Shown piece after piece: positions 1 to 43,029 of a DNA stretch of 64,000 bases. The stretch comes from Sphingobium sp. (GTDB lineage: Bacteria; Pseudomonadota; Alphaproteobacteria; Sphingomonadales; Sphingomonadaceae). The notes under the pieces are model-generated. The model searched no databases and was not told the DNA's origin. It saw nothing but the letters and a program-made list of their open reading frames with translations. The stretch spans positions 1,209 to 65,208 of the forward strand of contig JASGDV010000218.1 of the NCBI GenBank assembly GCA_049841255.1. Direction: 5' to 3'. Each line of letters opens with the position of its first letter. Position 1 is the first letter of the stretch. A program made the translations under genes and the position numbers.

Positions 1-999
1 ACGGTTTCGACGACCTTCTTCCACCCCTATCATATCGCGCGGACCCTGGGGTCGCTGGATGTGCTGACGGGCGGGCGGGTCGCCTGGAACATGGTGACAT
101 CCTCCAGCCAGGTCGAGGCGCGCAATTTCGGCATGGACACCATCCCGCCCCGGATGGAACGCTATGACCGGGCGGAAGAGGTGCTGGAAGCCTGCCTCGC
201 GCTGTGGGATAGCTGGGGCGAGGGCGCGGTGGTCATGGACAAGAAGGCAGGCATCTTCGCCGATCCTTCCAAGGTCAGGCCCGCCAATTATGAAGGCCGT
301 TTCGTCCGCACGGCAGGCCCGCTGACCACCCCGCGTTCCGCGCAGGGGCATCCCGTCATCATGCAGGCCGGATCGTCGGAAAAGGGGCGCGATCTGGGCG
401 CGCGTTCGGCGGAGGTGATCTTCTCCGTCAAACATGAATCCGCCATGCAGGACTTTTATTCGGACATCAAACGCCGGATGGAAAGCCATGGCCGTGGTCC
501 CGACGACTGCAAGATATTGACCTGCGTCGACACGATCATCGGCGAGACGGAAAGCATCGCGCGCGAGAAGCAGGCTTATGTGAACAGCCTGGTCGATGCG
601 GAGGGCGCGCTGGCGCTGGCTTCGTCCCATGCCGGGCTGGACCTGTCCCGATACCCGCTGGACCTGCCGCTGACGGAAGTGCAGTTCGAGGAAGGATCGG
701 AAGGCGCCTATAACCAGATCGCGAAATTCGGCGGGGAAGGGCTGACGCTTCGCGAAGCCGCCGTGCAATATGGGACGCATATGATGTGCCCGCAGATCGT
801 CGGGACGCCGGAACAGGTGGCGGACAAGTTGCAGCATCTGTTCGAAAACCGTTCCTGCGACGGTTTCGTCATGACCCCCATCGTGCTGCCGGGCAATTTC
901 GAGGAATTCGTCAACATGGTCGTGCCGATCCTCCAGGAGCGCGGCCTTTTCCGCACCGAATATGCGGGCGAGACGTTGCGCGAGAATCTGCGCGGCTGA
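1..999 (+). CDS. LLM-class flavin-dependent monooxygenase, NtaA/SnaA/DszA-like (5' end lies outside window)
   Basis: The frame is open from nt 1 (TVSTTFFHPYHIARTLGSLDVLTGGRVAWNMVTSS...). The C-terminal ~330 aa is collinear with nitrilotriacetate-monooxygenase-A type luciferase-like enzymes. TGA stop at 997-999. Confidence 0.85.
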   Translation, partial: TVSTTFFHPYHIARTLGSLDVLTGGRVAWNMVTSSSQVEARNFGMDTIPPRMERYDRAEEVLEACLALWDSWGEGAVVMDKKAGIFADPSKVRPANYEGRFVRTAGPLTTPRSAQGHPVIMQAGSSEKGRDLGARSAEVIFSVKHESAMQDFYSDIKRRMESHGRGPDDCKILTCVDTIIGETESIAREKQAYVNSLVDAEGALALASSHAGLDLSRYPLDLPLTEVQFEEGSEGAYNQIAKFGGEGLTLREAAVQYGTHMMCPQIVGTPEQVADKLQHLFENRSCDGFVMTPIVLPGNFEEFVNMVVPILQERGLFRTEYAGETLRENLRG

Positions 1000-1017
1000 C
1001 ACAGGACAGGGAGACGG

Positions 1018-2259
1018 ATCATCGCCCGCATAGCCGACGTCATCTTCGTCCCCGCGCGGGGCGGATATTTCAATATCGATCTGGCCGCGATGCAGACGGG
1101 ACGGGCGCGCAACGGCTTCCTGTATGAAGGGGAGCCGATCACGCCGGGGTTCGACGGCATCGTCCAGCCCGGCGAGTGCCTGTCGGTCCTGATCGTGCTG
1201 GACGACGGGCAGGTCGGCATGGGCGAAGGCGTCAGCGTCATATTGGCGGGCGCGGCGGGGCGGGAAGCCATCTTCCGGCCGGCCGATCATGTCGCGTGGC
1301 TGGAGGAGCATGTCCGGCCGCTGCTGATCGGGCGCTCGCTGGAAAATGGGCGGGAACTGGCGGAGGAGATGGACGCGCTCCGGGTGGATGGAGACTTGCT
1401 CCATGGCGCGGCCCGTTACGCGATCACGCAGGCGATCTTCCACGCCAGCGCCCTTGCGCGGCGGCGCACGGTGGCGCAGGTCATCGCCGAGGATTATGGG
1501 ATCGGGGGCGAGATGCGCGCCATTCCGATCCTCGCGGCCTGCGAGCAGGGGGATATGGCGCTGACCGACCGCATCATCCTGAAACGCGCCGATCTGTTGC
1601 CGCACGGTTCCTTCGCTTCGGTGGAGAATGATCTTGGGACGGACGGCGGCAAGCTGCTGGACTATGCGAGGGGATTGGCCGCGCGGATCGGCGAGGTCGG
1701 GGGAGAAGGATATCGCCCGACCATCCATTTCGATTGCTACGGATCGATTGGCAGCCTTTATCCCGATCCGGCCGAGGCGGCGGCCTATCTCGACAGGGTG
1801 GCCGAGGCGGTCGCGCCCTATCCTCTGCTGATCGAATCCCCGATCATCATGCCGAGCCGGGAAGAACAGTTCGCCAGCTATCGCGCGTTGCGGGTCGCGC
1901 TGCGCGACCGAGGCAGCACCGTCCGCATCATCATCGACGAATGGTGCAATACGCTGGATGATATTCGCGAATGCGCGCGCATGGGCGCGACGGATTTCGT
2001 GCAGATCAAGACGCCTGATCTGGGCGGCATCAACAATTCCATCGAAGCCGTGCTCATCTGCCGCGCCGCTTCGATGGGCGCTTGTCTGGGCGGGTCGGCC
2101 AATGAGACGGATATTTCCGCGCGCATGACGGTGCAGGTCGCGCTCGCCTGCCAGCCTGACTTCCTGATGTCGAAGCCGGGGCTGGGCTTCGACGAGGCCT
2201 ATATGATCATGAGCAACGAGATGTCGCGCACGCTGGCGCTTGCGAAGCGGCGGGCTTGA
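1018..2259 (+). CDS. Methylaspartate ammonia-lyase family protein (enolase-superfamily C-N lyase); start codon uncertain
   Basis: Collinear, from memory, with Clostridium 3-methylaspartase, including the catalytic-Lys motif VQIKTPDLGG and the C-terminus GGSANETDISARMTVQVALA..KPGLGFDEAYMIMSNEMSRTLAL. The conserved N-terminal strand (IARIADVIFVPARGGYFNID) is encoded upstream of the first ATG (1090). I placed the start at ATC 1018/1021, behind GGGAGA at 1009-1014. Confidence 0.8.
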   Translation: MIARIADVIFVPARGGYFNIDLAAMQTGRARNGFLYEGEPITPGFDGIVQPGECLSVLIVLDDGQVGMGEGVSVILAGAAGREAIFRPADHVAWLEEHVRPLLIGRSLENGRELAEEMDALRVDGDLLHGAARYAITQAIFHASALARRRTVAQVIAEDYGIGGEMRAIPILAACEQGDMALTDRIILKRADLLPHGSFASVENDLGTDGGKLLDYARGLAARIGEVGGEGYRPTIHFDCYGSIGSLYPDPAEAAAYLDRVAEAVAPYPLLIESPIIMPSREEQFASYRALRVALRDRGSTVRIIIDEWCNTLDDIRECARMGATDFVQIKTPDLGGINNSIEAVLICRAASMGACLGGSANETDISARMTVQVALACQPDFLMSKPGLGFDEAYMIMSNEMSRTLALAKRRA

Positions 2260-2267
2260 GGAAGAAG

Positions 2268-3602
2268 ATGGAAAGCCTTTCCCGGCAATTTGCGGACTTT
2301 TGGGCGGACGCCGCTTATGAGGATTTGCCCGCGGAGGCGATCCACAGCGTCAAGCGGGTCATATTGGACAGCTTGGCGGTGGCGGCTGCGGGCGCGTGGA
2401 CCGATGAAGGCGAAATCTTCCGGCGTGGGCTGTGCAACGGCCATGACGGCGGGAAGGGGGAGGCGCTTTTGTGGGGCACGCAGAGCCGGGTGCCCGCCTC
2501 CGTCGCCGCCATCGTGAACGGCAGCAACGCGCATATTCTGGAAATGGACGATTATGGCGGTTCGGGGCATACGGGGGCCGTGGTCGTCCCTGCGGCGGTC
2601 GCGCTGGCGGAACGCGAAGGGGCGAGCGGTCGGGACCTGATCCTTGCGGTTGCGGCGGGTTACGACATGTCGACCCGCGCGCTGGCCGCCGTGGGAGGCT
2701 ATGCGGCGCATAATGGCGACGGATGGCATTCGACGGGAACATGCGGCAGCTTCGCGGCCGGGGTGGCTGGCGCGCGCATGTTGCGCCTGCCTGCGCCTGC
2801 CTTTGCCCATGCCATCGGCATCGCGGGCACCTTCACCGGCGGAATCTGGGCCTTTGCCGTCGAAGGGGCGATGGCGAAACGCTATCATGCGGGCCGCGCC
2901 GCCGAGAGCGGGGTGACGGGCGCGCTGTTGGCGCAGGCCGGGATGACGGGGCCGGAGCAGATATTCGAAGCGCCCTTCGGCGGCTTCCTCAGCAGCTTTG
3001 CGAAGGGGCATAATGTTCCCGAAGCCCTGACGGCGGAGCTTGGGCGTGCGATCCGGGTCGAGGATTGCCTGAAGAGCCATGCCTGCTGCCTTGGGCTTTA
3101 CCCGCCCATCGATGCCTTGCTGGACCTGATGCGCGGGAGGTCTCTCGATTGGCGGCGGATCGAACGGATGGAGATTCATGCGCCCGCCGATTATGTCGCG
3201 CTGTTCGACCGGCCCCATGCGTCCAATCTTCTGGAAGCGCAGTTCAGCACGCAATATTGCCTGGCGGTGGCGGCCATGGATGGCGAGGCCGGAATAAGGC
3301 AGTTCCAGCCGCTCAGGATAAAGGATGGCGATGTCGCCCGGCTGATGGAGGCGACGAGCGTTCACCTGCTGGATGAGGGAGAGGCCCGCCTTGTCGTTCA
3401 TATGGCCGATGGAGAGACATGGCGGCAGCCTTTGCCGACCGTCTATCCGCCGGTTTCCGACGAGCGCCTGTTCGCCAAGGTGTCGAGCCTTTTGCTGGAC
3501 CGGCTGGGCGATGCGCGGGTCGGCAGGCTTTGCGACAGGGTGATGGAACTGGAACGGGAAGAGAATATCCGCGATCTGGTCAATCTGCTGGCGATTGCAT
3601 AG
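2268..3602 (+). CDS. MmgE/PrpD family protein (2-methylcitrate dehydratase / iminodisuccinate epimerase / cis-aconitate decarboxylase superfamily)
   Basis: N-terminal pattern FADFWADAAYEDLPAEAIHSVKRVILDSLAVAAAG and GSNAHILEMDDY are typical of the family. ATG 2268 is preceded by GAGGAAG. Alternative start TTG 2256 overlaps the upstream stop. Confidence 0.85.
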   Translation: MESLSRQFADFWADAAYEDLPAEAIHSVKRVILDSLAVAAAGAWTDEGEIFRRGLCNGHDGGKGEALLWGTQSRVPASVAAIVNGSNAHILEMDDYGGSGHTGAVVVPAAVALAEREGASGRDLILAVAAGYDMSTRALAAVGGYAAHNGDGWHSTGTCGSFAAGVAGARMLRLPAPAFAHAIGIAGTFTGGIWAFAVEGAMAKRYHAGRAAESGVTGALLAQAGMTGPEQIFEAPFGGFLSSFAKGHNVPEALTAELGRAIRVEDCLKSHACCLGLYPPIDALLDLMRGRSLDWRRIERMEIHAPADYVALFDRPHASNLLEAQFSTQYCLAVAAMDGEAGIRQFQPLRIKDGDVARLMEATSVHLLDEGEARLVVHMADGETWRQPLPTVYPPVSDERLFAKVSSLLLDRLGDARVGRLCDRVMELEREENIRDLVNLLAIA

Positions 3603-3641
3603 AGCGGGACTGAAAGCCGCCGCTTTCTGGAAGGGTTGGAA

Positions 3642-5261
3642 ATGACGGGCACGATGGGAGAGGCGCTGAAACGGACGGTGGATTGTTTCCCCGACCGTAT
3701 CTTCCTGCGCGATGGTGACCGGCAACTGACTTTCCGCGAAACCTCGGCGCGGGTCGACGCCATCGGCCGCGCGTTGCTGGCCATGGGTTTGAAGCGGCAT
3801 GACCGGCTGGCTCTGTGGATGCCCAATTCGCCGGAATGGGCGTTGTTCGCACTGGCCTGCGGGAGCCTTGGCATCCTGCTCGTGCCCCTCAATACGCGGA
3901 GCAAGGCGGAAGAGACGGCCTATATCCTCCGCAAGTCGAAGGTGAAGGCGCTGGTCATGGTCGACCGGTTCTGGACCATCGATTATTGCGAATTGCTTGC
4001 GGAGGCCATTCCCGGATTCAGCCGCTCGAACAGTGGCGTCCGCAATCGCGATGCCCTGCCGCATCTGGATTCCATCCTGCTGTTCGATGGCGGCGTCGAC
4101 GATTTCGGCGTCGAGAGATGGGCGGCGGGCTCTGGCGTGGATGGCCCTTCGCTGGAAAAGGCCAAGGCGGCCGTCAAGGCGGACGATCCATTTCTGACGG
4201 TCTTCACCTCGGGGACGACGGGCTATCCCAAGGGGGCGGTCCACACCCATGTCATCCTGCGGAATGTCGAGAATATCGCGCGCGGAATGCATATCGAGTC
4301 CGGCGATGTGGTCATGGGACATATGCCGTTTTTCCATGTGGCGGGGCTCTGCACCGCGCTGCTGCCCGCTGTGATCAACGGTTGCACTCTGGTGACCATG
4401 GCCCAATGGGACCCGGTGGAGGCGGCCCGCACGATCGCCGGGCTGCGCGCGAATATCTTCGGCGGCATCCCCACCCATTTCATCGATCTGGCCGAAGCGG
4501 TCGAGCGCGAGGGGCTGGATACCTCCTGCCTGAAAGGCGCATGGATCGGCGGCGCGACCGTATCGCCGGAGATCGCCCGTCATGCGAAGGATGTGCTGAG
4601 GGTTCAGGCTTTGCAGGCGGCCTATGGCATGACGGAAACCAGCGCCTGCACGACCTTGAGCCGCTTTGAGGACCCGCTGGAAATCGCCTGCGAAGGGAAG
4701 GGCGTTCCCATCGGCGATTTTGAAGTTCGCGTGGCCGATCCCGAAACCGGGGCAGAGCGGCAAGCGGGCGAGAATGGCGAAATATGGGTGCGCGGCCATA
4801 TCGTCATGAAGGAATATCTGGAAGACCCGGCGGAAACCGCCAGGGCGATGACGCCGGACGGATGGTTCCGCACCGGCGATCTGGGCCATTTCGACGCTGA
4901 CGGCTATCTGAAGCTGACGGGCCGTTTGAAGGATATGTTCATCGTAGGCGGAAGCAACGTCTATCCCGCCGAGGTGGAGCGTTGCCTGGATGCCATGCCC
5001 GGCGTGCGTCAGGCGGTGGTGGTCGGCGTTCCGGACAAGAGGCTGGGCGAAGTCGGCTTCGCCTTTGTCGAGCTGGACGGAAGCGCGGGGCTTTCCGACG
5101 GGGATGTGCTGGCTTTCGCGAAACGGAGCCTTGCCGATTACAAGGTGCCGCGCCACATCCGCTTCGTCGAGGATTTTCCCATGACCGGCGCGCGCAAGAT
5201 TCAGCGGCATGTTCTGGTGTCGAAAGCGATCGCCTTGCTTGGCGCGTTGCAAAATGGCTGA
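3642..5261 (+). CDS. AMP-dependent acyl-CoA synthetase/ligase (ANL superfamily)
   Basis: AMP-binding motif TSGTTGYPKGAVHTH, later TGDLGHFDADGYLKLTGRLKDMFIVGGSNVYPAEVE. ATG 3642 lies behind GGAAGGG. Confidence 0.9.
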   Translation: MTGTMGEALKRTVDCFPDRIFLRDGDRQLTFRETSARVDAIGRALLAMGLKRHDRLALWMPNSPEWALFALACGSLGILLVPLNTRSKAEETAYILRKSKVKALVMVDRFWTIDYCELLAEAIPGFSRSNSGVRNRDALPHLDSILLFDGGVDDFGVERWAAGSGVDGPSLEKAKAAVKADDPFLTVFTSGTTGYPKGAVHTHVILRNVENIARGMHIESGDVVMGHMPFFHVAGLCTALLPAVINGCTLVTMAQWDPVEAARTIAGLRANIFGGIPTHFIDLAEAVEREGLDTSCLKGAWIGGATVSPEIARHAKDVLRVQALQAAYGMTETSACTTLSRFEDPLEIACEGKGVPIGDFEVRVADPETGAERQAGENGEIWVRGHIVMKEYLEDPAETARAMTPDGWFRTGDLGHFDADGYLKLTGRLKDMFIVGGSNVYPAEVERCLDAMPGVRQAVVVGVPDKRLGEVGFAFVELDGSAGLSDGDVLAFAKRSLADYKVPRHIRFVEDFPMTGARKIQRHVLVSKAIALLGALQNG

Positions 5262-5284
5262 AGCGGCGGAGAATAGAGGCGGAT

Positions 5285-6370
5285 ATGGTCTGGGCACCTG
5301 AAGATTTTTTCGGAAAGCATCTGCCGCTCGCGCTGCTGACCGGCTTTCTCGGCAGCGGCAAGACGAGCCTGTTGAACCAGTTGCTGCGCGATCCGCGCAT
5401 GGCCGACACGGCGATCGCGATCAACGAGTTCGGCGATATAGGACTCGACCAGCATTTCGTCGAAGCGGGCGACGATGATGTCATCCTGCTGGCCAATGGC
5501 TGTATGTGCTGTCTGGCCGGAGACCAGATCGAGCAGTCGCTGGCCCGGATATTCCAGCGCAGCGCGGATGGGGAAATCCCGGCTTTCAAGCGGCTGGTCA
5601 TCGAGACATCGGGCATGGCGGACCCCGAATTCGTCCTGCAATCCATCCTCGACAGTCAGATCATGTCGCGTTTCCTGTGGCTGGACAGCATCGTCACGAC
5701 AGTCGATTCCCTGTTCGGCGTCCAGCAGATCGGGCAGCATCACGAAGCCGCGAAGCAGGTGCGCCTGGCGGACCGGCTGGTGATTACCAAGGCGGACATG
5801 GTGGATGCGGAGCGGTTGGCGCAGGTGCGGGATGCCCTGGCGGACATCAACCCGGCGGCGCGGCAGATCGTGAAGGCCAATGACGATGTCGACATCTCCC
5901 TCCTGTTCTCCCCCGCATTTTTCGATGGCGGGGAGAAGGGGTCGCTGCTGGGGGCGTGGGCGGAAAAGCAGTTGCTCCATCGCGGTGAAGGCTCCCATGC
6001 GCATGCCGAAGGGGAACCTTGCAATCACGGCTGCGACGACGGGAGTCCGCACGTTGCCCATGCCAGCACCTTTACGCTGACCGCCGACAGTCCCGTCGAC
6101 TGGCATCGCTTCACCCTCTGGCTTGGCGAGCAGCAGCGCAAATATGGCGACCGGCTCCTGCGGGTGAAGGGTTTGCTCAACGTCAGGGGAACGGACGATC
6201 CCGTCGTGGTCCATGCCGTCCAGTCGGTGATGCATGTTCCTGTCTCCCTCAAGAAATGGCCGGACGAGGATCGGCGGACGCGGATCGTGTTCATCCTCAA
6301 TGGCGAGGACGAAGGTTTGTCCGGCGACTGGACGGATTTTCTGGCGCGCAGCAGCACTCCTGTCCTTTGA
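5285..6370 (+). CDS. COG0523-family metallochaperone GTPase (CobW/YjiA/ZigA-like)
   Basis: P-loop GFLGSGKTSL, CXCC motif GCMCC, and a His/Cys-rich segment HRGEGSHAHAEGEPCNHGCDDGSPHVAH. The part of the track ORF upstream of ATG 5285 overlaps the ligase gene in another frame. Confidence 0.85.
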   Translation: MVWAPEDFFGKHLPLALLTGFLGSGKTSLLNQLLRDPRMADTAIAINEFGDIGLDQHFVEAGDDDVILLANGCMCCLAGDQIEQSLARIFQRSADGEIPAFKRLVIETSGMADPEFVLQSILDSQIMSRFLWLDSIVTTVDSLFGVQQIGQHHEAAKQVRLADRLVITKADMVDAERLAQVRDALADINPAARQIVKANDDVDISLLFSPAFFDGGEKGSLLGAWAEKQLLHRGEGSHAHAEGEPCNHGCDDGSPHVAHASTFTLTADSPVDWHRFTLWLGEQQRKYGDRLLRVKGLLNVRGTDDPVVVHAVQSVMHVPVSLKKWPDEDRRTRIVFILNGEDEGLSGDWTDFLARSSTPVL

Positions 6371-6374
6371 GCTT

Positions 6375-7457
6375 TTAGAAAAGCCGCATCTGCGGCCCTT
6401 CCGGGGGACGGAAGAGATCGGTCCTGACCGTCAGGCGCTCGCCCGTGAAACCCGCGCGCTTGCGGGCCTTGACGAAGCGGGCGCGGATCAGGTCGGCCCA
6501 TACGCCCTGCCCCCTCATGCGCGTGCGGAAATTCGGATCATTGTCCCGCCCGCCGCGCATGTCGCGGATGATCGACATGACCTTGGCGGCCCTGTCCGGA
6601 TAATGCGCGTCCAGCCATGCGCGGAACAGCGGGGAGACTTCATGGGGAAGGCGGATCGGGATATAGCCTGCCTCGCGCGCTCCCGCCTCCGATACGCGCT
6701 CGACGATCGCCTCTATTTCATGATCGGTGATGGCCGGGATGATGGGCGAGATGCTGGCAAAGACGGGAATGCCCGCCTCCGCAAGCTGGCGGATCGCTTC
6801 GATGCGGCGCAGGGGGTGGGGCGCCCTTGGCTCCAGCGTGCGCGCCACCGCCGGGTCGAGCGACGTGACGGAAATCGCTACTGAAACCAGTTGGTCGCGC
6901 GCCATGTCCGACAGCAGGTCGATGTCCCTCAGGATGCGGTTCGATTTGGTGGTGATGAATACGGGATGGCGGCACTCGGCCAGGATCTCAAGGCATTGGC
7001 GCGTGATCCGCCAATCCTTTTCGATCGGCTGATAGGGGTCGGTGTTGGTCCCCATGGCGATGGGCGCGACCGCATAGCCGCTTCGCGATAGCTCCTCGCG
7101 CAGCAGCTTCGCCGCATCGGGCTTCGCGAACAGACGCGTTTCGAAATCGATGCCCGGTGACAGGTCGTGATAGGCATGGGTCGGTCGCGCGAAGCAGTAG
7201 ATGCATCCATGTTCGCAGCCGCGATAGGCGTTGATGGACTGGCTGAAGGCTATGTCCGGCGAGTTGTTTCGGGTGATGATGCGCCGGGCCTGCTCGACCG
7301 TCACGCTTGTGCGGCGGCGCGGGGCGGGACCGTCTATCGTGGGCAGCGCATCGAGCCAGTCTCCGTCCGCTTCCCGCAGAGGAAGATGGAAGCGGCTGCT
7401 GGTTTCGTTCCGCGTCGCGCCTCTGCCTTTTTCATGGGCCATGAAGGATTGGAACAT
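6375..7457 (-). CDS. PA0069-family radical SAM protein (SplB-like)
   Basis: Radical-SAM cluster motif CEHGCIYCFARP, with KGRGA near the N-terminus. The start could be ATG 7457 or ATG 7442. Confidence 0.8.
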   Translation of the reverse strand: MFQSFMAHEKGRGATRNETSSRFHLPLREADGDWLDALPTIDGPAPRRRTSVTVEQARRIITRNNSPDIAFSQSINAYRGCEHGCIYCFARPTHAYHDLSPGIDFETRLFAKPDAAKLLREELSRSGYAVAPIAMGTNTDPYQPIEKDWRITRQCLEILAECRHPVFITTKSNRILRDIDLLSDMARDQLVSVAISVTSLDPAVARTLEPRAPHPLRRIEAIRQLAEAGIPVFASISPIIPAITDHEIEAIVERVSEAGAREAGYIPIRLPHEVSPLFRAWLDAHYPDRAAKVMSIIRDMRGGRDNDPNFRTRMRGQGVWADLIRARFVKARKRAGFTGERLTVRTDLFRPPEGPQMRLF

Positions 7458-7524
7458 ATCATGAACAATTTGACAAGCGGATAGCAATCGGGTCACAGGG
7501 CCGAAAACCAATCAAGGACTTTCC

Positions 7525-8034
7525 ATGCGCACTTTCATGACCAGCCTTGCCCTTGCGGCTGCCGCCTTTTCCATGCCCGCCTTCGCGTCGGACGAGGAGC
7601 CTTGCGGCAAGAATATGGTGTGCGCCAGCAATCCGCAGTCGGTTGCCGATGCCGTGCAGGCCGCCGGTTACAAGGCCGTGCTGTCCAAAAGCAGCACGAC
7701 CGGCAATCCGATGATCGAAAGCGCGGCCAACGGATATAATTATTCGATCTTCTTCTATGAATGCGAGGACGGGAAGAAGTGCGGGTCGATCCAGTTCCAG
7801 ATCAGCTTCGAGGATGACGGGGCGAATACGTTCGAACTCGCCAACAAGTGGAACAGCAACAAGCGGTTCAGCCAGATGGCTGTGTCCGACGACAAGTCGC
7901 TGGTCGTCAGCTATGACTTGGCCACCATCGGCGGCCTCAACCAGAAGAATTTCGCCGATGTGGTGGACTGGTGGGCGCTGATGCTGGGTGACCTCAGCAA
8001 GTTCTTCAAGGAAAATCGCGCGCCCAAGGCGTGA
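7525..8034 (+). CDS. YbjN-domain protein with N-terminal signal peptide
   Basis: Signal peptide MRTFMTSLALAAAAFSMPAFA followed by a YbjN-like core (GYNYSIFFYECEDGKKCGSIQFQISF). AAGGA lies 6 nt upstream of the ATG. Confidence 0.6.
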   Translation: MRTFMTSLALAAAAFSMPAFASDEEPCGKNMVCASNPQSVADAVQAAGYKAVLSKSSTTGNPMIESAANGYNYSIFFYECEDGKKCGSIQFQISFEDDGANTFELANKWNSNKRFSQMAVSDDKSLVVSYDLATIGGLNQKNFADVVDWWALMLGDLSKFFKENRAPKA

Positions 8035-8582: not shown

Positions 8583-10376
8583 TCAGTCGCTGCCGCCCGC
8601 CATCGCGTTTTTCCCGTCGGCGCGCGACAGGCGGACCAGACGGCTGCCCTTCGCGCCGGGGAAGGTCGGCCAAAGCCCCTGCGCCATGCCAGTGAGGCCG
8701 TCCGCCTTGCCCTGCGCCTGAATCTGATACATCCAATAGTTGCGCATGACGATGTTCACATAGGCGCGGGTTTCATAATAGGGCAGCGATTCCATGAAGA
8801 GCAGCGGATCGCCATTGTCCTTCACCTGCGTGTTCCACCGCTGCACGGGGAGCGGCCCGGCATTATAGGCGGCCATCACCTTGGGCAGCAGGCCGCCGGT
8901 CGCGCTCATGTCGCGCAGGGTTTCCAGATAACGCTGGCCATATTCCATATTGGTGGACGGCACGAACAGTTGCGCGGCGGAGGCCAGCCCCATGTCGCTG
9001 CCGGTGCCGGGGCGCACCTGCATCAGGCCGCGCGCGCCCGCCGAACTGACGGCATCGGTGCGGAAACCCGATTCCTGAAGCGTATGGGCGAACAGCAGCG
9101 ACGGGTCGACGCGCCAGCCGCCATCGGGCCTCCAGTCGGGCGCGGGGAAGCGTGCGAAACTTTCCGGCTGCTTTCCGGCGGGACCGTTATGCGCCAGCCA
9201 CAATTGCGTCGCAGGCAGGTTGAGGGCGCTGGCGAGGCGGAGCAACGCGTCATATTGCGCGGTGCCGCCCAGCTTGGCCTGATAGCGCAGGGCTTCGTCT
9301 GCCTTCGCCGATTGGCCGATGGCGGCGAAGACGATCGCCGCGCGGACATTGGGATTGGCCTTGAGCTGTTGCCATTCCGTTTCGCCGAAACGCGCGCCCA
9401 TCGCCGCGCCGCCGAGCGGCAATCCCAGGGATTCGCGGGCGAGAAGACCGTAGAAGGTTTCATCGGATCGGGCCGCGATCCGCAGCAGATTTTCGACTTT
9501 TTCGGGCTGGCCGCAGACCATATAGGCCCGCGCGGCCCAATAGGCGCCCGCCGCCCGCATATCGTCATTGCCTGCCAGCGCCGCCACATTGGCGAAAGCC
9601 GGGGCAGCGGTCAGGCAGTCATTCTGCCGCCAAGCGGCAAGGCCGGTCGTCCAGTGCGCCTGCACCGTCCAGTCGCCGCCCACCCGGGCCTCCAGCGCCC
9701 TGGCGGCCATGCGGCGCGCGTTGTTATCGTCGCTTTCGATATAATAAGCCCAGGCGACCCGCTGGCGCACTTCGGTCAACCCCTCCGGCGTCAGGCCCGC
9801 TTCGCCGGTGGCGAGCAGTCCTTCGGCCCCCGCCGGATCGTCATTCTTGACGAAGGCCTGGATGCGGCTGGCGAGGTTCTGCGCCAGCATATCCGTCCTG
9901 GTCGCGCGCACATATTCGCGGCGCGGCGCGGACCCCAGCCAGACGAGCTTCTGCACCTGAGGAAGATCGGGAAGAATGGTCGCGCCCCGTTTCTGGGCAA
10001 GGCGGGAAAGCTGATCCGCGCGCGGCAGCCATGACGCCTTGTTCAGCAGATCGAGCAGATCGAACAGTTCGACGCGCGGCGAATCCTTGGCCGTGTAAAG
10101 TTCGGCCAGCGCCACCGAACGCATGGGGTCATGTTGATCGAGGGACAGGATCATGGCTTTGGCGTCGGCCCATTTCTGGTCCTGAAGCGACGCGAAGATG
10201 GCGGCGTAGCGCGCCCTGTCCCCGTCGCTGAGGCGCAGGGGGCTGGAATCCGGGGTGCTCGCTTTCACAGGCAGGGCAGCCATCGCCGCCGTCGTTTCGG
10301 CCTTTGCTGGAATGACCGCCGCCGCTCCGATCATCAGGCAGGCGAGGCGGGAGAGGCGGGTTGCGGCGCGAATCAC
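8583..10376 (-). CDS. Soluble lytic murein transglycosylase (SLT domain)
   Basis: C-terminal SLT catalytic motif [20 protein letters not shown] and signal peptide [23 protein letters not shown] 10376 forms a GTGA overlap with the upstream stop. ATG 10418 is the alternative start. Confidence 0.85.
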
Positions 10377-11128
10377 GAACGGCTTTCCTCGATCAGGCTT
10401 TGCAGGGCATGCCAGCATTCCGCCTTGGCCGCCGACTGGCTAAGCAGGAGGCGCGGATGAAATGTGGCAATGGCGGGCAGCGTGCCGCCATCATGGTTAA
10501 AGAAACGTAAACGATTTGCGCCATCCGGGGCATCCGGCGGCAAAAGGGCACGGGTCGTCCGATCACCCAGCAACAGCAGCCGTCGCGGCGCCGCGAGCGC
10601 GACATGGGCGCGCATCCGCCGGACGGCGAAATCGATGTCGGCCGCCTCCACCATGCCGCCGGGCGGGCGGGACGTGAAAAGGGAGGCGATGTAGACATCC
10701 GCGCGGCTCATGCCGATGGCGCGCAGCATGGCGTCCAGCAAGGCCCCCGCGCGGTCGGCGAAAAGGCTGTGCGCGCTGACGTCCGCCGGATCGGGCATGT
10801 CGGTGACGATCATGACCGGCGCGGCCTGCGGTCCCGCGGGCATGATAGGAGAGGCGGGCCAGCGGCGTTCGGGCTGCGTCGCATCGCTGGCCAGCCAGTC
10901 GTGAAAGGCCGCGAGCGTCATAGGCATGACCGGGGCCGGGATGGCGTCGGCGGGCTTTGCGGCAGGGACGGGCGACGGGCGCAGCCAGTTCACGGGAGCC
11001 TCGCTCACCGCGTCATCGACCCCGGCTTGCGCCCACCATGAAAGATAGGCGTCGGCCGCCGCCGGCAAGTTAATCTGCAATGCACCCCGCATAGTTCTTC
11101 TAGGGCCAGAGGTTGACGCCGTGGTCAA
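10373..11128 (-). CDS. Uracil-DNA glycosylase superfamily (family 4-like) protein
   Basis: C-terminal UDG-type domain (IVTDMPD, DRAGALLDAMLRAIGMSRADVYIASLF, RPPGG, FHPRLLL). The start could be TTG 11128 or ATG 11092. Confidence 0.7.
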   Translation of the reverse strand: MTTASTSGPRRTMRGALQINLPAAADAYLSWWAQAGVDDAVSEAPVNWLRPSPVPAAKPADAIPAPVMPMTLAAFHDWLASDATQPERRWPASPIMPAGPQAAPVMIVTDMPDPADVSAHSLFADRAGALLDAMLRAIGMSRADVYIASLFTSRPPGGMVEAADIDFAVRRMRAHVALAAPRRLLLLGDRTTRALLPPDAPDGANRLRFFNHDGGTLPAIATFHPRLLLSQSAAKAECWHALQSLIEESRS

Positions 11129-42954: not shown

Positions 42955-43029
42955 TCCCCCTCACCCAGCTACGACTAAGGCAGCAAGCTGCCCAAGTCTC
43001 CGCAACCCTCTCCCCCATGGGGCGAGGGA
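42955..43029. repeat. Family-B dispersed repeat, copy 2
   Basis: Same orientation as copy 1. It contains the ggcagc-aa-gctgcc and cctctcccc..ggggcgagg hairpins. Confidence 0.8.

Follow-up and report, generated by a model that had tools for sequence, protein, structure and literature searches.

The window analysed here is a 64,000-nucleotide stretch of the genome of a Sphingobium sp. (contig C218:1209-65208). Within its positions 1-6370, five open reading frames (ORFs) were identified in succession on the plus strand by six-frame ORF listing, translation, and Pfam and NCBIfam searches. They encode a luciferase-like monooxygenase (LLM), a homologue of methylaspartate ammonia-lyase (MAL), an MmgE/PrpD-family (PrpD-like) protein, an acyl-CoA ligase, and a COG0523 GTPase, in what looks like a single operon. 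The MAL homologue carries the catalytic residues of MAL in an altered substrate pocket, belongs to a separate clade (referred to here as the non-Gln73 clade) whose genes recur beside PrpD-like genes, and may form with its PrpD-like partner a lyase-epimerase pair acting on a 2-substituted succinate. The five genes are arranged as follows.

1-999, plus strand: 3' part (332 codons) of the LLM monooxygenase gene (PF00296 Bac_luciferase; TIGR03860)
1018/1021-2259, plus strand: MAL-family lyase homologue (MAAL_N and MAAL_C; TIGR01502)
2268-3602, plus strand: MmgE/PrpD-family protein (PF03972 and PF19305; MmgE_PrpD_N and C)
3642-5261, plus strand: class I adenylate-forming acyl-CoA ligase (PF00501 and PF13193; AMP-binding and AMP-binding_C)
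5285-6370, plus strand: COG0523 GTPase metallochaperone (PF02492 and PF07683; cobW and CobW_C)

A sequence-only reading of this DNA had described five co-directional genes of these families with spacers of about 18, 8, 39, and 23 nt, and this description was reproduced by our reading of the DNA and by the Pfam and NCBIfam searches. In gene order, the spacers read from the DNA are 18 or 21, 8, 39, and 23 nt, and ribosome-binding sites accompany the spacers of 8-39 nt. The LLM gene ends with a TGA stop codon (997-999), followed by GGGAGA (1009-1014) and by ATC codons at 1018 and 1021; the stop codons of the next three genes (2257-2259, 3600-3602, and 5259-5261) are followed by ATG codons at 2268, 3642, and 5285, respectively, and the cobW gene stops at 6368-6370. 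No ATG, GTG, or TTG codon is present 5' of the conserved N-terminus of the MAL homologue; its gene is in frame with the LLM gene, with the single TGA (997-999) between them, and the N-termini of homologues, MPKI(A/T)D, align exactly with I-A-R-I-A-D in the window protein. The lack of a usual start codon and this alignment make it likely that translation starts at a non-canonical ATC (1018 or 1021) or by reinitiation past the in-frame TGA; the database gene call places the start at an ATA at 1030.

The MAL homologue has the fold of MAL. It scored 418 bits against TIGR01502 (cut-off, 286) and 159 and 317 bits against Pfam MAAL_N and MAAL_C, respectively, and its residues 4-412 align with residues 2-412 of the solved MAL 1KCZ (E 6e-103, ~43% identity). 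The catalytic residues Lys331, His194, and Gln329 and the Mg2+ ligands Asp238, Glu273, and Asp307 are kept; Lys331 and His194 act as the S- and R-specific bases, respectively, through a Mg2+-stabilised enolate (PMC3310078, PMC7586795). The sequence-only reading had made this assignment depend on the survival of the catalytic residues in a proper alignment, and all of them survive, but the substrate-defining residues are lost. Relative to the enzyme of Clostridium tetanomorphum (CtMAL), both glutamines of the ammonia pocket are replaced (Gln73 by Ile and Gln172 by Ala), as are five residues of the methyl/C1 pocket (Phe170 by Leu, Tyr356 by Cys, Thr360 by Ser, Cys361 by Ala, and Leu384 by Met). 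Among the 120 best database matches (51-67% identity, nearly all annotated 'methylaspartate ammonia-lyase'), Ile73 occurs in 119, together with Leu170, Ser or Ala at position 172, and mostly Cys356, and H194, D238, E273, D307, Q329, and K331 are invariant in all 120. Positions 73 and 384, which are altered in the natural clade, are those mutated in engineered CtMAL: CtMAL-Q73A takes linear and cyclic alkylamines to give N-substituted aspartates, and CtMAL-L384A takes large C3 substituents (PMC7586795). MAL-type enzymes are reversible (PMC3310078, PMC7586795).

The genomic context of the gene also departs from that of MAL. The glutamate mutase E chain (GlmE; PF06368) was not found in the genome containing the window, which is 94% complete, and no set of CoA-transferase, CoA-ester-lyase, and fumarase genes accompanies the MAL homologue, unlike the true proteobacterial MALs. 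The earlier statement that the gene combination matches no textbook methylaspartate route therefore holds. Retention of the fold and of the catalytic set, combined with the departures in the amino-group pocket, in the methyl/C1-carboxylate pocket, and in the genomic link to glutamate mutase or mesaconate-CoA genes, argues that the protein is probably not a methylaspartase and that it should not be filed under EC 4.3.1.2, despite passing TIGR01502.

Gene neighbourhoods separate the two kinds of MAL-family genes. In a sample of 93 MAL-family genes from genome loci, in which neighbours within 8 kb were recorded, 54 encode Gln73 and 39 do not. In the Q73 class, the columns read Q,F,Q,H,D,E,D,Q,K,Y,T,C,L, as they do in CtMAL, which validates the alignment, and 51 of the 54 members of this class lie near GlmE, a query verified as PF06368 in the Clostridium tetani locus, whereas PrpD, SBP_bac_5, and LLM genes were found near none. 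The non-Q73 genes, with Ile or Val at position 73 and Ser, Ala, or others at 172, are monophyletic (support 1.0; 39 genes); GlmE lies near none of them, and PrpD, SBP_bac_5, and LLM genes near 19, 16, and 4, respectively. Exclusion of the window and of three loci fetched via PrpD leaves 35 non-Q73 genes in 30 loci, with PrpD near 16, SBP_bac_5 near 14, and LLM genes near 4. The MALs of rhizobial plasmids keep Q73, Q172, and C361 and are true proteobacterial MALs; the genes of such MALs are accompanied either by glmSLE or by those of a CaiB-type CoA-transferase, a CoA-ester lyase, and fumarase.

The usual unit of the wider non-Gln73 clade comprises MAL-like, SBP_bac_5, PrpD-like, DppB, DppC, DppD, and DppF genes and was found in Bordetella, other Burkholderiales, Mesorhizobium, and several alphaproteobacterial metagenome-assembled genomes (MAGs). 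The best solved relative of the SBP_bac_5 protein is the agropinic-acid receptor AgaA, narrowly above dipeptide and haem binders. Genes of histidine utilization (hutU, hutH, hutI, hutF, and hutC) occur near the unit in at least five loci in varying arrangements; in locus L104 (1843-12848), as also in L030, L031, L032, and L046, the unit lies directly 3' of hutU-hutH or beside hutI, hutF, or hutC. This association, seen in several lineages, hints at histidine or a hut intermediate as a product of some clade members. Other neighbours of the unit are a class-III aminotransferase, an aldehyde dehydrogenase, AsnC, a flavoprotein resembling trimethylamine dehydrogenase, pca and hgm genes, and TctC receptors with a family-III CoA-transferase.

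A search of plasmids with MAL returned mostly true Q73 MALs. The conjugative plasmid of Rhizobium sp. 007 (L109 1327-19230) carries two non-Gln73 MAL-like genes, one of them encoding Val73, together with an octopine/nopaline-dehydrogenase-family gene, an S-adenosylmethionine methyltransferase, two aminotransferases, a transporter of the major facilitator superfamily (MFS), an ABC importer, and a PhnF-type regulator, and may be a locus for the synthesis or catabolism of an opine-like compound. Some genomes contain three or four MAL-like paralogues, e.g. G565 of the same class (contigs C3, C4, C10, and C16), and three paralogues lie within 21 kb in Chelativorans sp. J32 and in a Mesorhizobium MAG (L037, L047). 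Such paralogue sets suggest diversifying specificity.

Together with the proteins of Paraburkholderia sp. D1E and of two metagenomic contigs, the window protein forms a long-branched subclade (support 1.0). Neighbouring genes in this subclade encode two or three LLMs of the DszA/NtaA type (46-55% identity to the window LLM), an MFS transporter, a porin, and a GMC oxidoreductase. Every named database homologue of the MAL homologue is called MAL. Residues, phylogeny, and gene neighbourhood all point to a different function, and the labelling of the non-Gln73 clade by TIGR01502, a curated equivalog model, and by all source annotations looks like a systematic annotation error.

Among solved structures, the best relatives of the PrpD-like protein are iminodisuccinate (IDS) epimerase (2hp0/2hp3; E 7e-28, 101 bits over ~410 residues) and then B. 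subtilis 'IRG1'. Its motifs AHxLExDD, GH, GWH, K..H.G, and K-S align with those of IDS epimerase and place it in the family, at an identity well below that of orthologues. It is not a 2-methylcitrate dehydratase by NF042438 (38 bits; cut-off, 950), and no methylcitrate synthase or lyase was found in the cluster containing the operon. The nearest homologues are 43-49% identical, none closer being present in 5.8 billion clusters, and a MAL-like gene lies directly upstream of the PrpD-like gene in all three of the best-match contexts checked. The characterised MmgE/PrpD enzymes, i.e. 2-methylcitrate dehydratase, cis-aconitate decarboxylase, IDS epimerase, and methylsuccinate isomerase, all protonate or deprotonate C2 of a C4 1,4-dicarboxylate, and the roles of the conserved dicarboxylate-binding His/Glu/His/His/Lys/Lys motifs have been described (PMC12290011). 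The protein is predicted to be a C2 epimerase or isomerase of a C4-dicarboxylate skeleton.

The LLM scored 405 bits against TIGR03860 (cut-off, 280) and is probably a two-component FMNH2-dependent monooxygenase of the NtaA/DmoA/DszA subfamily. It had been described as NtaA-like, which is correct at the level of the subfamily, but its closest solved relative is DszA (5tlc; 415 bits, E 3e-123), followed by LadA (298 bits), NtaA (223 bits), and EmoA (202 bits); YtnJ also ranks below DszA. There is no specific closeness to the monooxygenases of nitrilotriacetate or ethylenediaminetetraacetate. Homologues with 46-55% identity adjoin MAL-like genes in loci L009, L010, L012, and L035.

The ligase contains both ANL domains (AMP-binding and AMP-binding_C), and its best NCBIfam models are those of FadD3-family and fatty-acid CoA ligases, all below their cut-offs (FadD3, 410 against 657). 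The suggestion that it activates a diacid finds no support here, the protein resembling FadD3 and alicyclic-acid ligases rather than diacid ligases. Its homologues in Paraburkholderia sp. D1E and Sphingomonas sp. CDS-1 are 64-68% identical, and a plasmid search returned no close homologue (45% identity at most). The COG0523 protein has the Walker A motif GSGKTS, the GCMCC motif, and a His/Cys-rich linker characteristic of its family, and it falls below the cut-offs for YjiA, CobW, and ZigA (ZigA, 82 bits against 600). No Zur box was found in C218:1-3708 with a generic palindrome allowing up to three mismatches, which is a weak test.

In D1E, on which nothing was found in the literature, the cobW gene directly follows the ligase gene (69% identity to that of the window; 56% for the CDS-1 cobW), and this pair lies 21 kb from the D1E MAL-like gene in the same island. 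The island also carries at least seven LLMs, a gene resembling flavin-containing monooxygenase (FMO) or Baeyer-Villiger monooxygenase (BVMO), thiolase, enoyl-CoA hydratase (ECH), acyl-CoA dehydrogenases (ACADs), a RidA-Amidohydro_2-RidA set, two TetR genes, a flavin reductase, and DUF1329/DUF1302 genes. The order in CDS-1 is LLM360, GMC, ligase, LLM, ACAD, thiolase, short-chain dehydrogenase/reductase (SDR), and ECH, with cobW, RidA, Amidohydro_2, RidA, and LLM on the opposite strand. Homologues of these island genes (55-91% identity) are present in the window genome on contigs C4, C63, C92, C148, C200, C213, and C259. The operon is a mosaic of three modules that occur separately in other genomes, i.e. 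LLM with MAL-like, MAL-like with PrpD-like, and ligase with COG0523. COG0523 travels with the ligase and with the LLM-RidA-Amidohydro_2 set, and the weak test for a Zur-like box gave none; there is thus no support for linking COG0523 to a chelating substrate.

The LLM gene starts at C218:903, 305 nt to the left of the window, and its full-length product has 434 amino acids. The start of C218 contains the 3' end of a GMC oxidoreductase gene, and the following genes flank the operon.

C218:413-712, same strand as the operon: EthD-family gene, upstream of the LLM gene and downstream of the GMC gene
6375-7511, minus strand: radical-SAM gene, convergent with the operon and the first gene of a housekeeping block
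10373-11128, minus strand: UDG-superfamily gene, in the conserved core block 3' of the operon

The EthD gene is followed by a 13-bp terminator-like hairpin with UUUUU (C218 758-795), and next comes an AT-rich gap of 190 nt; the two mark a separate 5' boundary. With the hairpin and gap upstream and the convergent radical-SAM gene downstream, the five genes look like one transcription unit with its own 5' and 3' limits. A consensus promoter and terminator scan of window positions 1-7600 gave nothing exceeding shuffled sequences, the 5' signals lying to the left of the window.

A palindrome, ATACC-CTGT-GGTAT (C218 830-843), lies 60 nt before the LLM start. An inverted-repeat search of the upstream gap reported none; the 5+5 palindrome was spotted by eye and then tested genome-wide. 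The exact form, ATACC-N4-GGTAT, occurs at four sites in the 3.36-Mb genome (~1.2 expected from base composition).

Upstream of the five-gene operon: ATACC-N4-GGTAT site in the promoter region
C148: ATACC-N4-GGTAT site in the divergent region between an LLM gene and an FMO/BVMO-like gene
C259: ATACC-N4-GGTAT site in the divergent region between a FadB-like gene and a TetR_C_24 regulator gene
Between ftsK and lolA: ATACC-N4-GGTAT site, taken as chance

Sites with one mismatch are not enriched genome-wide (31 against ~45 expected), so that only the exact sites and their positions carry weight. In D1E, the palindrome precedes the GMC gene, the operon containing the MAL-like gene, and the FMO gene, with one-mismatch copies between TetR and thiolase genes and between cobW and an LLM gene, and the same palindrome is present in promoter regions of the CDS-1 locus. 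The 21-kb loci of D1E and CDS-1 contain two or three matches each, against 0.09-0.21 expected, a number reached in none of 100 shuffles. The C259 TetR is 73% identical to the D1E TetR encoded just upstream of ligase-cobW. A hydantoinase/oxoprolinase-family gene lies downstream of the C259 TetR gene (L113 5900-8002). The motif is a putative TetR operator, and the sharing of this operator with D1E and CDS-1 and the similarity of the TetR proteins argue that the operon would be co-regulated with the LLM, BVMO, and beta-oxidation genes and that this predicted regulon moves between distant proteobacteria. Its enzymes are flavin monooxygenases, enzymes of alcohol and aldehyde oxidation, CoA ligases, and enzymes of beta-oxidation.

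The operon sits in a horizontally acquired catabolic island. A search of 200 other genomes of the family, covering 112 genera and including two genomes of the same genus, found no homologue of the MAL-like protein; among 400 other genomes sampled from the class, one had it. Against four relatives, two of the genus and two of the family, window positions 1-6370 gave no DNA match longer than ~180 nt, and collinear matches with these relatives start at ~6450, just past the operon. The five genes are thus not a unit conserved across the family, and the test of conservation that the sequence-only reading had proposed for the Sphingomonadaceae is not applicable. The core block that begins right after the operon contains radical-SAM, UDG-superfamily, YbjN, MoCF_biosynth, SLT, and electron transfer flavoprotein-quinone oxidoreductase (ETF-QO) genes and is collinear in the relatives. 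In a relative, ppk2 adjoins the radical-SAM gene; in this genome, ppk2 is on another contig (C235), which runs on into unrelated glycosyltransferase genes.

The upstream extension called for by the sequence-only reading revealed a larger cluster. The end of contig C162 encodes the N-terminal 426 residues of the GMC protein whose gene continues at the start of C218, and the two contigs overlap by 173 nt (end of C162, start of C218) with one mismatch. C162 (1-12844) carries nine further genes on the same strand. In the joined contigs, the order is ACAD, BetI-like TetR, SDR, ADP-forming acyl-CoA synthetase, thiamine diphosphate-dependent enzyme (PRK07586 type), RutA-like LLM, aldehyde dehydrogenase, GMC oxidoreductase, EthD, and the five-gene operon, which closes a cluster of at least 19 kb and at least 14 genes, all on one strand; a 376-codon ORF at C162 65-1195 and frames at ~1244-3397 gave no Pfam match. 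Positions 1-145 of C162 contain a dispersed repeat of ~100 nt (92-100% identity) that recurs on at least 12 contigs, frequently at their ends, with one copy inside the window (42961-43029). This repeat is probably an element resembling a repetitive extragenic palindrome or a miniature inverted-repeat transposable element that fragments the assembly; because of it, C162 is not joinable further leftward, towards the left border of the island.

Gene content, residue changes, clade neighbourhoods, operator conservation, and island status are direct observations, and from them we infer the chemical steps. Our tentatively favoured reading is that the operon, a member of a TetR regulon, encodes an epimerase-lyase pair acting on a succinate substituted at C2, an N-substituted aspartate being the likeliest candidate. 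Once the operon is de-repressed, the LLM would draw FMNH2 from a reductase homologue encoded on C4 and hydroxylate a carbon beside a heteroatom in the same molecule or in a precursor. The MAL-like enzyme would form the Mg-stabilised enolate of the 2-substituted succinate and expel the C2 substituent, which would be bulkier than, or other than, ammonia, to release fumarate or an alkylfumarate and, most likely, an amine. The PrpD-like protein would epimerise C2, so that the 'wrong' diastereomer, too, becomes open to the stereospecific lyase, much as IDS epimerase serves the IDS C-N lyase; the ligase would turn the acid set free into a CoA ester for the beta-oxidation enzymes of the regulon; and the COG0523 protein may metallate a regulon enzyme, the candidate being Amidohydro_2, its recurrent neighbour elsewhere. 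An amine is favoured as the leaving group because both amine-binding glutamines are lost and engineered Q73A behaves as described above, because the clade neighbours include Dpp/AgaA-type importers and hut, aminotransferase, and opine-dehydrogenase-family genes, and because the regulon includes RidA, hydantoinase, and BetI/BetA/BetB-like genes. The amino(poly)carboxylate substrate considered by the sequence-only reading fits the rebuilt amine pocket and the partner resembling IDS epimerase; a role of COG0523 tied to a chelating substrate finds no support. Still more tentatively, non-Gln73 MAL-like and PrpD-like proteins in general could be a natural lyase-epimerase system for N-substituted aspartates (opine-like compounds or aminopolycarboxylates), mislabelled as MAL in hundreds of proteobacterial genomes and metagenomes.

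Several points weigh against the favoured reading. The leaving group is deduced from lost residues and neighbours only, and the neighbours differ between subclades. Within its own subclade, the window is alone in joining the MAL-like gene to PrpD, loci L009, L010, and L012 being without PrpD. The regulon looks like one for aliphatic or alicyclic acid catabolism (BVMO, FadB, thiolase, and FadD3-like ligase) with no evident need for a C-N lyase, and the operon itself contains no transporter or amine-handling gene. The C162-C218 join depends on a 173-nt overlap with one mismatch. In the literature, we found no assay of any enzyme of the non-Gln73 clade, as well as no link of MAL to MmgE/PrpD and no natural Q73 variant.

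It is unlikely that the succinate adduct is linked other than through nitrogen, with the MAL-like enzyme acting as a C-S or C-O lyase, the PrpD-like protein epimerising the succinyl C2, and the LLM providing an alternative, oxidative C-X cleavage of substrates such as S-(2-succino)thiols, sulfosuccinate, or O-substituted malates, e.g. carboxymethyloxysuccinate. The best solved relative of the LLM is indeed the C-S-cleaving DszA, and the yxe pathway for S-(2-succino)cysteine uses the LLM YxeK or, alternatively, a fumarate-releasing lyase, and also YxeQ (PMC9706529). The known S-(2-succino) lyase, however, belongs to the aspartase/fumarase class and not to the MAL family. YxeQ is presumably an MmgE/PrpD protein. 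A hydrophobic, thiol-lined pocket (I73, C356) would suit such adducts, and the scaffold of aldehyde dehydrogenase, GMC, EthD, and ligase resembles the logic of the polyethylene glycol (PEG) genes of ether-degrading sphingomonads, but the clusters examined showed no genes for the handling of sulfite or thiols, and the neighbours of the wider clade (Dpp/AgaA-like, hut, class-III aminotransferase, and opine-dehydrogenase-family genes) indicate amines or amino acids. The chances are also low that only a hydroxyl group is handled, i.e. that the MAL-like and PrpD-like proteins are a hydratase/dehydratase-isomerase pair acting on an alkyl-malate, citramalate, or alkylsuccinate derived from the breakdown of an aliphatic, alicyclic, or terpenoid acid, by analogy with PrpD and aconitase in the methylcitrate cycle. 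The composition of the regulon (LLMs, type-I BVMO/FMO-like enzyme, GMC, aldehyde dehydrogenase, FadD3-like ligase, ACAD, FadB, and thiolase) accords with this proposal, as do the enlarged C3-alkyl pocket (F170L, Y356C, and L384M; engineered L384A accepts large C3 groups), the position of some clade members beside TctC receptors with a family-III CoA-transferase, and the chemistry of the PrpD family, the prototype being a dehydratase and methylsuccinate isomerase acting on a pure carboxylate. A changed amine nevertheless explains the loss of both glutamines and the hut and aminotransferase links more simply; most PrpD-linked members lie in Dpp-type ABC operons typical of zwitterionic solutes, and the RidA, hydantoinase, and BetI/BetA/BetB-like genes of the regulon hint at nitrogen.

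The five genes may, with quite a low probability, have no joint function at all and be a recent mosaic in which lyase and PrpD genes were inserted into a GMC-ligase scaffold. The CDS-1 order of LLM360, GMC, and ligase with nothing between them, the separate occurrence of the modules elsewhere, and the uniqueness of PrpD in the window's MAL subclade can be read in this way; the tight spacers with their ribosome-binding sites, and the single operator-bearing promoter region preceding the operon with a terminator just upstream, speak for a functional unit, and the D1E MAL-like operon has the same operator in an island that carries ligase-cobW 21 kb away. A very improbable proposal is that the operon builds a chelating aminopolycarboxylate, such as a metallophore resembling ethylenediaminedisuccinate or an opine, with the lyase working in the addition direction and COG0523 serving metal homeostasis. 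MAL-type enzymes are reversible, a COG0523 gene closes the operon, and, on the rhizobial plasmid, one V73 relative has an opine-synthase-family gene, a methyltransferase, and aminotransferases as neighbours. Yet no exporter, TonB receptor, or Zur-like box was found at the operon, the surrounding genes and the regulon are catabolic, the usual partner in the wider clade is an ABC importer, and cobW co-varies with the ligase and Amidohydro_2 rather than with the lyase. The automatic annotation, a genuine MAL in a mesaconate or methylaspartate route, is extremely improbable: the score of 418 bits against the TIGR01502 cut-off of 286, the full-length alignment with 1KCZ, the complete catalytic set, and the names of the homologues are what such an enzyme would show, but the protein has other residues in place of Gln73, Gln172, Phe170, Tyr356, and Cys361, the search for glutamate mutase in the genome found none, GlmE is near 0 of 39 clade members against 51 of 54 true MALs, and true MALs of proteobacteria retain Q73 and have as neighbours either glmSLE or the genes of a CoA-transferase, a CoA-ester lyase, and fumarase.

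If the substrate is an N-substituted aspartate, as we tentatively favour, the enolase superfamily would gain in this lyase its first natural amine lyase other than methylaspartase. The natural changes hit the positions that engineers mutate for N- and C3-substituted aspartates, and the clade may offer ready-made C-N lyases. The recurrent MAL-like and PrpD-like pair gives a testable epimerase function for part of the large, mostly unassigned MmgE/PrpD family and points to a class of environmental 2-substituted succinates imported by Dpp-type transporters, and the conserved putative TetR operator, which links scattered contigs into one predicted regulon, offers an experimental handle on the substrate.

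Several known systems resemble parts of this operon. The MALs of C. tetanomorphum and Citrobacter amalonaticus (1KCZ, 1KKR; EC 4.3.1.2) share the two-domain enolase-superfamily fold and the catalytic set with the MAL homologue but differ in the pocket residues and fall in a separate clade, and genes of the window type never lie beside glutamate mutase. The engineered CtMAL-Q73A and CtMAL-L384A (3ZVH, 3ZVI) have substitutions at the same positions, 73 and 384; the natural proteins have Ile or Val rather than Ala at 73, plus changes at 170, 172, 356, and 361. Among solved proteins, the LLM is closest to the dibenzothiophene-sulfone monooxygenase DszA (5TLC), with which it shares the two-component FMNH2-dependent type; no dszB or dszC is present, and the context is unrelated to desulfurisation. 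In iminodisuccinate degradation by Agrobacterium tumefaciens BY6, a stereospecific C-N lyase is reportedly paired with a C2 epimerase. That system (2HP0) combines an MmgE/PrpD epimerase with a fumarate-releasing lyase on a 2-substituted succinate, as proposed here; the window PrpD-like protein scores 101 bits only against its epimerase, and the window lyase is of the MAL family. In the breakdown of S-(2-succino)cysteine, a 2-substituted succinate is attacked by an LLM of the NtaA/DszA family (YxeK of the B. subtilis yxe operon) and/or, in other bacteria, by the fumarate-releasing lyase 2SL, alongside an unassigned partner protein (YxeQ); 2SL, however, is a class I (aspartase/fumarase) lyase, and the yxe acetyltransferase and deacetylase are not present in the operon. 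The sphingomonad PEG operon (PegC, PegA, and PegE), whose series runs from alcohol through aldehyde and acid to CoA ester, shares the scaffold of aldehyde dehydrogenase, GMC, and acyl-CoA ligase in an accessory cluster, a likeness at the level of gene types; the present cluster has two LLMs, EthD, the lyase, PrpD, and COG0523 inserted into this scaffold, with a regulator of the TetR type rather than the AraC or GalR type. The operon thus resembles the IDS pair and, in part, the yxe and peg systems, and is a member of none of them.

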